IMG/VR virus record: IMGVR_UViG_2778261176_000002
Coordinates: 1-5,698 of that record
Direction: 5' to 3' (one strand)
Source: a virus
Lineage: Duplodnaviria; Heunggongvirae; Uroviricota; Caudoviricetes
DNA length: 5,698 nt
This document shows positions 2,841-4,731 of the stretch, piece after piece. A model generated the notes under the pieces. That model was not told where the DNA came from, did not search any database, and worked only from the letters and a program-made list of their open reading frames with translations. Each line of letters opens with the position of its first letter. Position 1 is the first letter of the stretch. Both the position numbers and the translations under genes were made by a program.

Positions 2841-3009
2841 GACCGACCTCTATTTCCCTGAATTTACGACGAAACTGTTCGAGCGGACTGAAGCACTCAT
2901 GCTCATAGCCTTCGCGGAGGTAGATAACCCGTTGTGTTTCCGGCTCCCAACGAATGACTCTGACGGGCACTCCGTAGTGATCTTTGAACCAGCGGTTAAC
3001 TTGTTGCAA
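2830..3009 (-). CDS. Hypothetical small protein (59 aa, TTG start): (M)[58 protein letters not shown]
   Basis: Found by hand-translating the minus strand in the frame offset from track ORF 2850..3188. Strongly protein-like sequence. AAGGAG Shine-Dalgarno at 3023-3018 sits 8 nt upstream of TTG 3009-3007. TAA stop at 2832-2830 overlaps the initiator start by 11 nt. No ATG in this frame downstream of the TGA at 3039-3037. Confidence 0.4.
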
Positions 3010-3188
3010 AGGACTGTCTCCTTCTGCCGGTTGAAATCACCCACAGCCCACTCTGCAAAGCTGTGGGTTACAATTTCCCTGTCACCTGGTACATTCACTG
3101 CATAGCAATACTCCACCTTCGCTTTTCCACCCGGCACAGGAAGCGCAATCAGTTGCGAGCGACGGTAGTGTGTTGTTAAACTGTTCAT
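2850..3188 (-). CDS. Hypothetical protein in the frame coupled to the cII-like gene; likely genuine only in its N-terminal part (about 3188 to 3040)
   Basis: ATG 3188-3186 overlaps the cII-like stop as ATGA; GGAGAA lies ~10 nt upstream. The N-terminal ~50 aa ([52 protein letters not shown]) look protein-like. The C-terminal part (…[24 protein letters not shown]) looks like an out-of-frame read of feature 2830-3009. Confidence 0.3.
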
Positions 3189-3826
3189 GCGTTAGTTTCT
3201 CCACAACCAGAAGCAATCGACGCCACGACGCCCGGAGCTGCACACTCGCGGGCGTTACTCTTTTCCGGCGCACAAAAAACACGAAATAACAGTGTTAAAT
3301 GCTCCTGCCACTTCGCCATTACTTGGTAGCTGTTCTCTTCGATTTGCTCACGCTCAGCCTGATCAATAACTCCATCAGCAGTTGCCTTACGTAAGTACTG
3401 GGAATGCTTGCCAATCCATTCTATTGACTCCATCAGCCGCTGATTAATGTCACCATTGTCAATGTCATCAATGACCACCAGCGGCACAAACACCCCATTA
3501 CTACGACGGGCTATTGCATCCGTTACATGCCTGGTACCACTGGCATCCTGTAAAACCATGGCCCACTCGAGTGGAAAAATTTGATCCCCACCGCTACGCA
3601 GTCTGTTATGCAATTGATCTTTTGCTGGGGTGATATCATCAGATTTATACAAACCAAGAATTTCTGCTGCTTCCTCATAGCCATGAGGTAAATCAGCAAT
3701 CGTTCTTCGTATTGCTGCCACCAGCCATGCTGGCTGTTTATCAACTTTCCATTCAGGTTCTTTACCCACGTTTAAGTCCTCATATCTGTGGTTTCTGTAA
3801 ATCGATTTATCCATTAGATTTTTCAT
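3185..3826 (-). CDS. cII-like lysogeny-establishment regulator (possibly Phage_CP76 / cII-type family)
   Basis: Same frame as track ORF 3185..3883, started at ATG 3826 ([13 protein letters not shown]...); ATG 3814 is an alternative. Sits immediately after the cro-like gene, overlapping its stop, which is the cII position in lambdoid phages. The central segment [24 protein letters not shown] resembles, from memory, the conserved F-P-E-W-L-D block of CP76-type CII proteins; this was not verified by search. No good Shine-Dalgarno, so start may depend on coupling to cro. Confidence 0.55.
3190..3266 (+). ncRNA. Putative oop-like antisense RNA covering the 3' end of the cII-like gene
   Basis: Candidate sigma70 promoter on the + strand: TTGCGA (3153-3158), 18-nt spacer, TAAACT (3177-3182). 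The predicted start is near the cII-like stop and a + strand intrinsic terminator lies at 3228-3266, giving a ~75-nt transcript antisense to the last ~80 nt of the cII-like gene. This matches the lambda pO/oop arrangement. Hexamers are weak (4/6 each). Confidence 0.3.
3228..3266 (+). terminator. Rho-independent terminator-like hairpin with U-rich tail on the + strand (antisense, inside the cII-like coding region)
   Basis: Stem ACGCCCG+GAG (3228-3237) pairs with CTC+G+CGGGCGT (3245-3255) with one bulge; 7-nt loop; followed by TACTCTTTTCC. The reverse complement on the minus strand has no U tract, so the element is + strand specific. Confidence 0.4.
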
Positions 3827-4007
3827 AAAGCTCAGGTTTAAATGGCAACCGTCCGCAAGTTCTATATGCAGCCTCTGCTGCACGTCCTTTTGGAATTAAC
3901 TGGCCAGGACGGTTTCGCCACTGATAAACGGCTTCAGTTGTTATGCCGAAAAAAGCAGCAACTTTCTCAATGCTGCCGAAGTAGCTTTCGATATCGTCAG
4001 TCGTCAT
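3807..4007 (-). CDS. cro: Cro-like HTH repressor (YdaS/Cro family)
   Basis: 66 aa ORF divergent from cI. HTH segment SIEKVAAFFGITTEAVYQWRNRPGQLIPKGRAAEAAYRTCG matches the Cro/YdaS-type pattern. GGAGGG Shine-Dalgarno 4 nt upstream of ATG 4007-4005. Confidence 0.8.
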   Translation of the reverse strand: MTTDDIESYFGSIEKVAAFFGITTEAVYQWRNRPGQLIPKGRAAEAAYRTCGRLPFKPELYEKSNG

Positions 4008-4018
4008 ATGCCCTCCAA

Positions 4019-4035
4019 ACTAAGTTTTGTTAGAT
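4019..4035. promoter_or_regulatory. Operator-like dyad ACTAAGTTTTGTTAGAT (CTAA-N7-TTAG)
   Basis: 17-mer differing at only 2 positions from the site at 4797-4813 on the other side of cI. Overlaps the -10/+1 region of the candidate cro promoter. Confidence 0.5.
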
Positions 4036-4067
4036 CTTAATTATCAATCTATCTTAGGTCAATAAAA

Positions 4068-4083
4068 ACTAAGATTACTTAGT
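4068..4083. promoter_or_regulatory. Operator-like dyad ACTAAGATTACTTAGT
   Basis: Perfect 6-bp inverted arms ACTAAG / CTTAGT around a 4-bp centre; same CTAA-N7-TTAG geometry as the other sites. Lies just upstream of the candidate pR -35. Confidence 0.5.
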
Positions 4084-4104
4084 AATTAAAGAAATGGTGC
4101 TCCT

Positions 4105-4731
4105 ATGGAAACAGTTGGTCAGCGTATAAAAGCTCTGAGAAGGGTTACCAGAACGTCCCAGAAAGAATTGGGTAAATTTTGTGGAGTAAGTGACGTTGCT
4201 GTGGGGTACTGGGAGAAAGACATCAATGTCCCTGGTGGGGAAGCACTTTCAAAATTAGCGAAGTTCTTCAATACGTCAATAGATTACATTCTTTATGGTG
4301 CTGAGTTTGAAGGCAAACTCGTCACAAACATGCGCAGAGTTCCTGTAATCTCGTGGGTGCAGGCTGGGCAGTTTACTGAGTGCAGGACAGCAGAAGTGTT
4401 TAGTGAAGTAGACAAGTGGGTAGATACATCATTAAAGATTGGTGATAACTCATTTGCATTGGAGGTTAAAGGCGACTCCATGACTAACCCTAATGGCCTC
4501 CCAACAATACCAGAAGGCGCAACAGTGATTGTAGATCCTGATGCAGAACCCCGGCATGGAAAAATAGTCATCGCTAGACTTGATGGAACAAACGAAGCCA
4601 CAGTAAAAAAATTAGTTATCGATGGCCCTCAAAAGTTTTTAGTGCCATTAAATCCCCGGTACCCCAACATCCCGATCAATGGTAATTGCCTCATCATTGG
4701 TGTAGTCAAAGGAGTTCAATACGAACTCTAG
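4105..4731 (+). CDS. cI: CI-type prophage repressor: N-terminal XRE-family HTH, C-terminal S24 (LexA-like) autopeptidase domain
   Basis: 208 aa. HTH: TSQKELGKFCGVSDVAVGYWEK. Ala-Gly cleavage-site context VQAGQF. Ser nucleophile in KGDSMTNP and general-base Lys in ATVKKLV, all spaced as in LexA / lambda CI. Divergent from the cro-like gene. Confidence 0.9.
   Translation: METVGQRIKALRRVTRTSQKELGKFCGVSDVAVGYWEKDINVPGGEALSKLAKFFNTSIDYILYGAEFEGKLVTNMRRVPVISWVQAGQFTECRTAEVFSEVDKWVDTSLKIGDNSFALEVKGDSMTNPNGLPTIPEGATVIVDPDAEPRHGKIVIARLDGTNEATVKKLVIDGPQKFLVPLNPRYPNIPINGNCLIIGVVKGVQYEL

Follow-up and report, generated by a model that had tools for sequence, protein, structure and literature searches.

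The junction between a cII-like gene and a ymfM-like gene in this phage DNA carries a small RNA gene on the opposite strand. We confirmed positions 3153-3266 (+) of the window, which is the whole analysed stretch of 5,698 nucleotides, as a real antisense RNA gene and as the phage orthologue of ECS003, a transcript of prophage e14 in Escherichia coli K-12. The explanation that we favor, with about as much confidence as doubt, is that this ~74-nt ECS003 orthologue is a cis-antisense RNA that represses the junction, acting in the manner of sar and SymR on ymfM and in the manner of oop on the cII-like gene.

The window comes from a lambdoid phage and spans its immunity and early-right region. Its nearest relative is phage mEp460, and prophage e14 and phages SfII and SfV are kin. 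The cro, cII-like and ymfM-like genes (Table 1) share the - strand with an O-like replication gene, Dam and RusA. The cII-like ORF, taken as 3883..3185, matches PHROG 101 'CII-like transcriptional activator' (E = 4e-62), Pfam Phage_CP76 (28.2 bits; cut-off 26) and the NCBIfam YmfL family (NF041471; 180.8 bits), and the ymfM-like protein is 96% identical to K-12 YmfM. The C-terminal 29 residues of YmfL (window 3185-3271, - strand), which are encoded under the RNA, fall outside NF041471 and are missing in the homologue of the Klebsiella-type loci discussed below; this tail looks like coding sequence laid over an antisense RNA gene. Between cro and cI, at 4017-4089, repeated palindromic ACTAAG...CTTAGT boxes are likely operators, and they overlap a pR-like TTGACC-17-TAAGAT on the - strand (4062..4034). 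Inside the O-like replication gene, positions 2468-2531 hold 4.3 tandem copies of a 15-nt unit, CAGATTTTGACGGGT, which are probably the origin iterons.

Table 1. Coordinates of the antisense element and of the surrounding genes in the window.
Feature	Position	Strand	Remarks
-35 hexamer TTGCGA	3153..3158	+	within codons 11-12 of the ymfM-like gene
-10 hexamer TAAACT	3177..3182	+	within codons 3-4 of the ymfM-like gene
Antisense RNA, ~74 nt	3186..3259	+	5' end ±~3 nt; 3' end by K-12 homology
Anti-SD/anti-AUG 5' segment	3186..3204	+	complement of GGAGAAACUAACGCAUG; AUG 3188..3186 and SD GGAG 3202..3199 of the ymfM-like gene
5' domain helix GCGU(U)/(G)ACGC	3189-3193 with 3219-3223 (domain 3189..3223)	+	closes a loop displaying the anti-SD UUCUCC
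Terminator hairpin	3227..3256 (core 3228-3255)	+	11 bp, one bulged G, 7-nt loop CUGCACA
U-rich tail	3257..3266	+	DNA UUACUCUUUUCC; U-rich tail ACUCUUUUCC
cII-like gene, YmfL family (proposed target 1)	3826..3185	-	mechanical ORF reaches GTG at 3883
ymfM-like gene (proposed target 2)	3188..2850	-	ATGA stop/start overlap with the cII-like gene at 3185-3188
P22-type cro	4007..3807	-	
LexA-like cI gene	4105-4731	+	
Mosaic joints	3152; 3255-3279; about 1720-1760 of locus L071		

The most direct evidence for the RNA comes from K-12. The ymfL/ymfM junction of e14 equals window 3101-3256 except for two bases, both upstream of the promoter, and the two sequences diverge only past the hairpin, where the tail is UUACUCUUUUCC in the window and UCAUUACUUUCUG in e14. 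From e14, Shinhara et al. (2011, BMC Genomics 12:428) described ECS003 as an antisense RNA of ~70 nt on Northern blots, with a heavily read part of 78 nt and a faint ~120-nt species beside the main band. It had the highest read count of the nine cis-antisense candidates tabulated there, its level did not vary between the conditions, and an hfq mutant was not reported to differ. The ECS003 sequence given in the supplement of that paper begins CAUGCGUUAG, which is window 3186. In the Term-seq data of Adams et al. (2021), a 3' end labelled 'antisense ymfL' at MG1655 1203751(-) has scores of 1.4e7 and 2.8e7, ~100x those of its neighbours. This end maps 4 nt past the stem and, together with the 5' end of ECS003, defines an RNA of 74 nt corresponding to window 3186-3259. 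The initial annotation, made from the window's letters, had predicted a + strand RNA of ~75 nt running from the cII-like stop to just past the hairpin, in close agreement with the 74 nt found for e14. Orthology between ECS003 and the window extends across the promoter, the RNA body and the hairpin. The expression data come from K-12 e14 and from the ST64B region only.

In Salmonella, coordinate mapping indicates that STnc1300 of ST64B, a highly expressed + strand RNA of 139 nt (L003 1466-1604), overlaps the element on the matching strand and has the same 3' end. It starts 68 nt upstream of the start point of the conserved promoter, so promoter usage may differ between phages. A second promoter-like sequence, TTACGC-17-TAATCT, is located at L003 1431-1459. 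STnc1310 was also considered as the Salmonella counterpart and discarded, as coordinate mapping places it beyond cI. Rfam contained no family matching the element, either at E values up to 10 on the window or at the gathering score on related loci; the sole window match, mir-5880, is spurious and caused by the ori iterons. Other RNA families do occur in relatives. The long 'antirepressor' ORFs of SfV (L001 989-1177 (-)) and ST64B (L003 995-1183 (-)) hold strong Rfam matches to C4 antisense RNA, at 82 and 80 bits, and to IsrK, at 64 bits. They represent an RNA immunity module of the P1/P4/Gifsy type, which is absent from the window.

The antisense promoter is contained in the first 12 codons of the ymfM-like gene. 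The proposed TTGCGA-N18-TAAACT on the + strand is indeed there, with an 18-nt spacer and a TG at 3174-3175, the extended -10 position in the window, and both the conservation of its hexamers and the K-12 experiments back it. The hexamers match the consensus at 8/12 positions, below the scan cut-off of 9/12, and this match is not significant by itself. The promoter and terminator scan of the window listed neither the antisense promoter nor the bulged hairpin, and gives no support either way; it also found fewer promoter-like sites in the window than in shuffles, and it probably missed the hairpin because of the bulge. Since the promoter match lacks significance by itself and the scan picked up neither feature, the case rests on conservation and on published experiments with near-identical K-12 DNA. 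The comparison used 66 distinct sequences of the element that span the whole promoter; their loci were found via the cII-like protein, which does not bias the choice with regard to the promoter. Among these relatives TTGCG of the -35 hexamer is invariant, including both of its synonymous sites. The sole other -35 variant seen, TTGCTT, occurs at two genome loci, one of them in Erwinia. The -10 hexamer occurs only as TAAACT, TAAATT, TACACT or TAATAT, and T1, A2 and T6 are always kept though the encoded residues change. The spacer is a constant 18 nt in at least 44 different sequences. Shimada et al. (2014) found an RpoD-holoenzyme SELEX binding peak between ymfL and ymfM of K-12 in vitro (strand not resolved), and the 5' end of ECS003 lies 4-7 nt past the -10 hexamer. 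The element thus combines hexamers within the 16-18 nt spacing of sigma-70 promoters with use by the polymerase. The lambda promoter pO is said to be SOS-controlled. For the promoter in the window, a LexA box was considered and rejected, as CTGT-N8-TAGT is a poor match by eye and is lost in the TAAATTGCTCATGCGG variants.

A promoter in this place could matter through the act of transcription and not through its RNA, by interfering convergently with early-right entry into ymfM, O and the replication genes, or by modulating replication. It faces the early-right operon and binds holoenzyme in vitro without added factors, the O-like gene with its ori iterons lies ~650 nt downstream, and a related idea has been discussed for lambda pO, which a review calls important for replication control. 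We nevertheless regard this as quite improbable, since a covarying terminator hairpin and a conserved anti-SD segment would be left unexplained, and a 74-nt transcription unit offers little room for collision.

The hairpin and its U-rich tail, predicted on the + strand inside the minus-strand cII-like ORF, were both found in that place. The concern that the fold might be too weak for termination was not borne out: the + strand hairpin has -17.7 kcal/mol (z = -3.2), and 0/200 dinucleotide shuffles are as stable. Unlike the promoter, the hairpin is therefore significant by itself. No U tail follows the hairpin on the - strand, so intrinsic termination is possible on the + strand only and the hairpin would terminate the antisense transcript alone, as the initial annotation held. 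Among 24 distinct hairpins, 100% of cells are paired and the covariation score was reached by 0/500 shuffles, with the caveat that some of these loci were gathered with a 16-mer that fixes the loop and the inner stem. Double (compensatory) changes occur in three pairs, C-G to A-U (twice), C-G to G-C and A-U to G-C. Homologous tails range from the weak UCAUUACUUUCUG of e14 up to UCACUUUUUUUUG in Erwinia. With its energy, its covariation and a K-12 Term-seq 3' end just past the stem, the hairpin has the properties of an intrinsic terminator, albeit one with an interrupted U tract and, in K-12, with the faint ~120-nt species as read-through. Trimming back to the hairpin might also have produced the 3' end. 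A further 3' end antisense to ymfL, bicyclomycin-sensitive (Rho-dependent), is located at K-12 MG1655 1203416 (-) (L010 about 3417), 335 nt past the hairpin, which implies some read-through of the terminator.

In the protein-anchored relatives, the loop CUGCACA (3239-3245) and the GCCACG before the stem (3222-3227) are almost invariant, with one position in each varying slightly. This extreme conservation of hairpin and loop goes beyond the needs of a plain terminator and is not explained by repression of the junction; it could reflect a kissing-loop contact or another constraint. An invariant loop, which a terminator does not require, would fit a hairpin acting on the sense mRNA, in its processing or stability or as a structure coupling the cII-like gene to ymfM, with the antisense RNA as a by-product. 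The sense strand folds as stably, at -18.9 kcal/mol, but its z is only -2.4 and 6/200 shuffles are as stable. In addition, the conserved hexamers, the T-rich tail on the + strand and the very abundant antisense 3' end would have no explanation, which makes such a role very unlikely indeed.

Conservation along the element follows the RNA and its promoter. Over the 66 sequences, the mean column entropy is 0.27 bits in the -35 hexamer, 1.05 in the spacer and 0.29 in the -10 hexamer, 0.26-0.41 in the start/stop and anti-SD segment, 1.52 in the RNA body, 0.10 in the hairpin and 0.38 in the tail. At third codon positions the hairpin has 0.05 bits and the hexamers have 0.11-0.17, compared with 1.0-1.6 in the flanks. 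Together, the compensatory changes and the -10 variants that preserve TAnnnT point to selection on the RNA and the promoter at the nucleotide level. A helix in the 5' domain (Table 1) appears in the fold of the single sequence as well as in the consensus that RNAalifold gives for 48 distinct RNAs. Its fourth pair is U-A in 26, G-C in 10, G-U in 6, U-G in 4 and A-U in one, with one mismatch. In these sequences, which are related, the partners pair in 99.5% of cells and, with the partner slid along, in 22-62%, a modest sign of covariation.

The element is present in 2731 of 5426 complete E. coli genomes, in up to 4 diverged copies per genome, and is annotated as RNA in none of them; many Enterobacterales have it in their prophages too. 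Roughly three in four matches in the 16-mer genome scan arose by chance and served as the control, from which the true elements (6/6 outer pairs, mostly Enterobacterales) were cleanly separated by stem complementarity. A ymfM-anchored locus search, with the promoter region among its search patterns, returned near-identical relatives only and has little independent value. Mosaic recombination joints among the phages lie at the element edges, just outside the -35 hexamer and just after the hairpin or tail, and also within the variable middle.

Such joints at both edges and inside, the multiple diverged copies per genome and the abundance of the RNA in a lysogen where its cis target is repressed would be compatible with the RNA, though real, having its role elsewhere or none at all, acting in trans on host genes, related prophages or superinfecting phages, or serving as a recombination 'linker' at a module boundary. 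The compensatory changes and the -10 variants that keep TAnnnT indicate selection and not mere homogenization, a change of the RNA level is not reported for the hfq mutant, and no trans target is known. We therefore consider this unlikely.

Two genes meet at the element, and the RNA is complementary to both. It covers the last ~24 codons of the cII-like gene, an overlap of ~72 nt, and its 5' segment is complementary to the SD and the start codon of the ymfM-like gene, which is the arrangement of sar/SymR-type repressors, with a segment entropy of 0.26-0.41 bits. The initial annotation, which described an oop-like RNA against the cII-like 3' end, was right in geometry and size; sequence homology to oop is lacking, and the coverage of the ymfM SD and AUG had been overlooked. 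At all 197 element loci, the cII-like gene lies on one side and the ymfM-like start on the other. The hairpin lies within the cII-like ORF at 189 of them. At the remaining eight (Klebsiella phages, Erwinia and Mixta), the cII-like ORF is only 26% identical and ends at the hairpin or ahead of it, which makes the RNA body intergenic. The element of these Klebsiella-type loci is conserved, with a compensatory change, despite this. Two loci, L071 and L072, have a cII-like gene without ymfM and lack both the promoter and the hairpin, with the joint just after the tail; they are near-identical to each other and are effectively one observation. Judged from these sequences, the link between the element and the ymfM-like gene seems to be no weaker than its link to the cII-like ORF, although a promoter placed within ymfM makes some of the co-occurrence with that gene inevitable.

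The gene after the element has a notable identity. K-12 YmfM is SfiC, a toxic, SOS-inducible inhibitor of FtsZ-ring formation, and overexpression of ymfL gives no filamentation. In SfV, Stx2 phages and ST64B, the 'antirepressor' gene that follows the element starts with a YmfM-like domain, to which Ash and Rha domains are joined. The view that the downstream genes are unrelated was discarded, as these 'antirepressor' ORFs begin with a YmfM-like domain at 34% identity (E = 7e-9). The ymfM translation start would accordingly be the most consistently conserved target, and an oop-like effect on the cII-like gene as well is plausible. In a p19 dsRNA table whose columns carry no headers, ymfL appears to have more reads than either ymfT or ymfM.

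If the RNA were purely an analogue of oop, RNase III would cleave the duplex at the cII-like 3' end, lower the activator and bias the phage to lysis, and the overlap with ymfM would be incidental. The position, orientation and size are those of lambda oop, whose mechanism is established (review); PHROG and Pfam both class the upstream gene as CII-like, and the hairpin sits inside this ORF at nearly all loci. YmfL as a CII is putative, though, being assigned by profile match, and the RNA has no sequence homology to oop. At the Klebsiella, Erwinia and Mixta loci the overlap shrinks to roughly the stop codon and the element is still kept, and the anti-SD/anti-AUG segment is the most conserved part of the RNA outside the terminator. 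On balance, an exclusively oop-like role appears doubtful, although it deserves more weight than the other alternatives considered above.

In the mechanism that we favor, repression of the junction, a sigma-70 promoter in codons 3-12 of the ymfM-like gene fires against the early-right operon, and transcription runs from the cII-like stop and ymfM start (ATGA) to the terminator hairpin in the last cII-like codons. These production steps have been shown directly or for K-12 DNA near-identical to the window, and in the K-12 lysogen the RNA is abundant and constitutive. Spanning the junction, the RNA would then form a perfect duplex with the operon mRNA. The 5' third of the RNA would mask the ymfM-like SD and AUG and block translation, as P22 sar does on ant and SymR on symE. 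The masked gene would be the FtsZ inhibitor or, in other phages, the YmfM-like domain fused to the Ash/Rha 'antirepressor'. RNase III probably cuts the duplex, which is ~70 bp long. Of the two genes, the ymfM-like one would offer the main conserved target, at its translation start, with the cII-like gene targeted alongside. YmfM-dependent SOS filamentation persists in K-12 despite the abundant RNA, so any repression must be leaky or overridable. The ATGA overlap suggests translational coupling, which might bypass the masking of the SD.

Tentatively, the RNA might be an antitoxin-like guard. By masking the start of a YmfM/SfiC-type or YmfM-Ash-Rha gene, it would set a threshold below which leaky prophage transcription does no harm, and would couple this to the level of the CII-like protein, with one RNA acting on two genes. 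Heteroimmune phages have almost the same 5' and 3' segments, so a resident copy, e.g. that of e14, could act in trans on superinfecting or co-resident relatives. Such a guard is possible, but we would not call it probable.

ECS003 is among the most abundant antisense RNAs of E. coli K-12 and is found in about half of the complete E. coli genomes, yet it is unannotated there and absent from Rfam. It overlaps the genes of two regulators: a CII-like factor for lysis-lysogeny, and YmfM/SfiC, an inhibitor of division that is inducible by SOS. Knowing which of these genes is controlled would explain the silence of SfiC-type inhibitors in lysogens, and would give the oop/sar theme a second solution, one without homology. 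As a type, such an RNA is unsurprising.

The transcript itself was known already, catalogued as ECS003, in a description that drew no comparison to oop or sar and named no family; a 2025 review of phage small RNAs mentions neither e14 nor ECS003. Its function, its family-wide conservation and its likeness to oop and sar appear to be undescribed before. The window RNA shares with ECS003 its strand, its 5' end, its size of ~70-74 nt and its antisense position to ymfL and ymfM, and differs in the tail.

In the λ paradigm, OOP has its own promoter, pO, which lies where the gene following cII begins. Its transcription opposes that from pR and stops within the 3' end of cII, at an intrinsic terminator. 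The window RNA has the same layout, and direct comparison with lambda (L091) bears out the likeness in geometry and size that had been proposed (77 nt for OOP, 74 nt here); the overlap with cII is 55 nt in lambda and ~72 nt here. The likeness is not one of descent that can be read from the letters: the Smith-Waterman score is 16, against a shuffle mean of 12.6 +/- 2.1 with 10% of shuffles scoring at least as high, and the best local match is 8 nt, CGGGCGTT, so homology to oop was rejected. The two RNAs also differ at their 5' ends. Oop begins 11 nt upstream of the O start codon, which it thus leaves free; the window RNA covers both the AUG and the SD of the next gene, and this next gene is a division inhibitor and not O.

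In P22, sar is encoded at the arc-ant junction. Like the window RNA, sar (68/69 nt) is a small phage antisense RNA on the translation-initiation region of the downstream gene of a junction, and it blocks ant translation by pairing at the initiation region (review). The downstream gene here is similarly labelled 'antirepressor' (YmfM-like + Ash + Rha) in many relatives. The location differs: sar belongs to immI, whereas the window RNA belongs to the early-right operon. A further parallel is found in the type I toxin-antitoxin pair SymR/SymE of E. coli. SymR is reportedly a constitutive cis-antisense RNA of ~77 nt with a promoter only a short way into the toxin ORF, and is said to cover the SD and AUG of the SOS-induced toxin gene symE. 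YmfM is likewise toxic, blocking the FtsZ ring, and SOS-induced. In contrast to symE, a stand-alone gene, the target here is an internal cistron of a phage operon.
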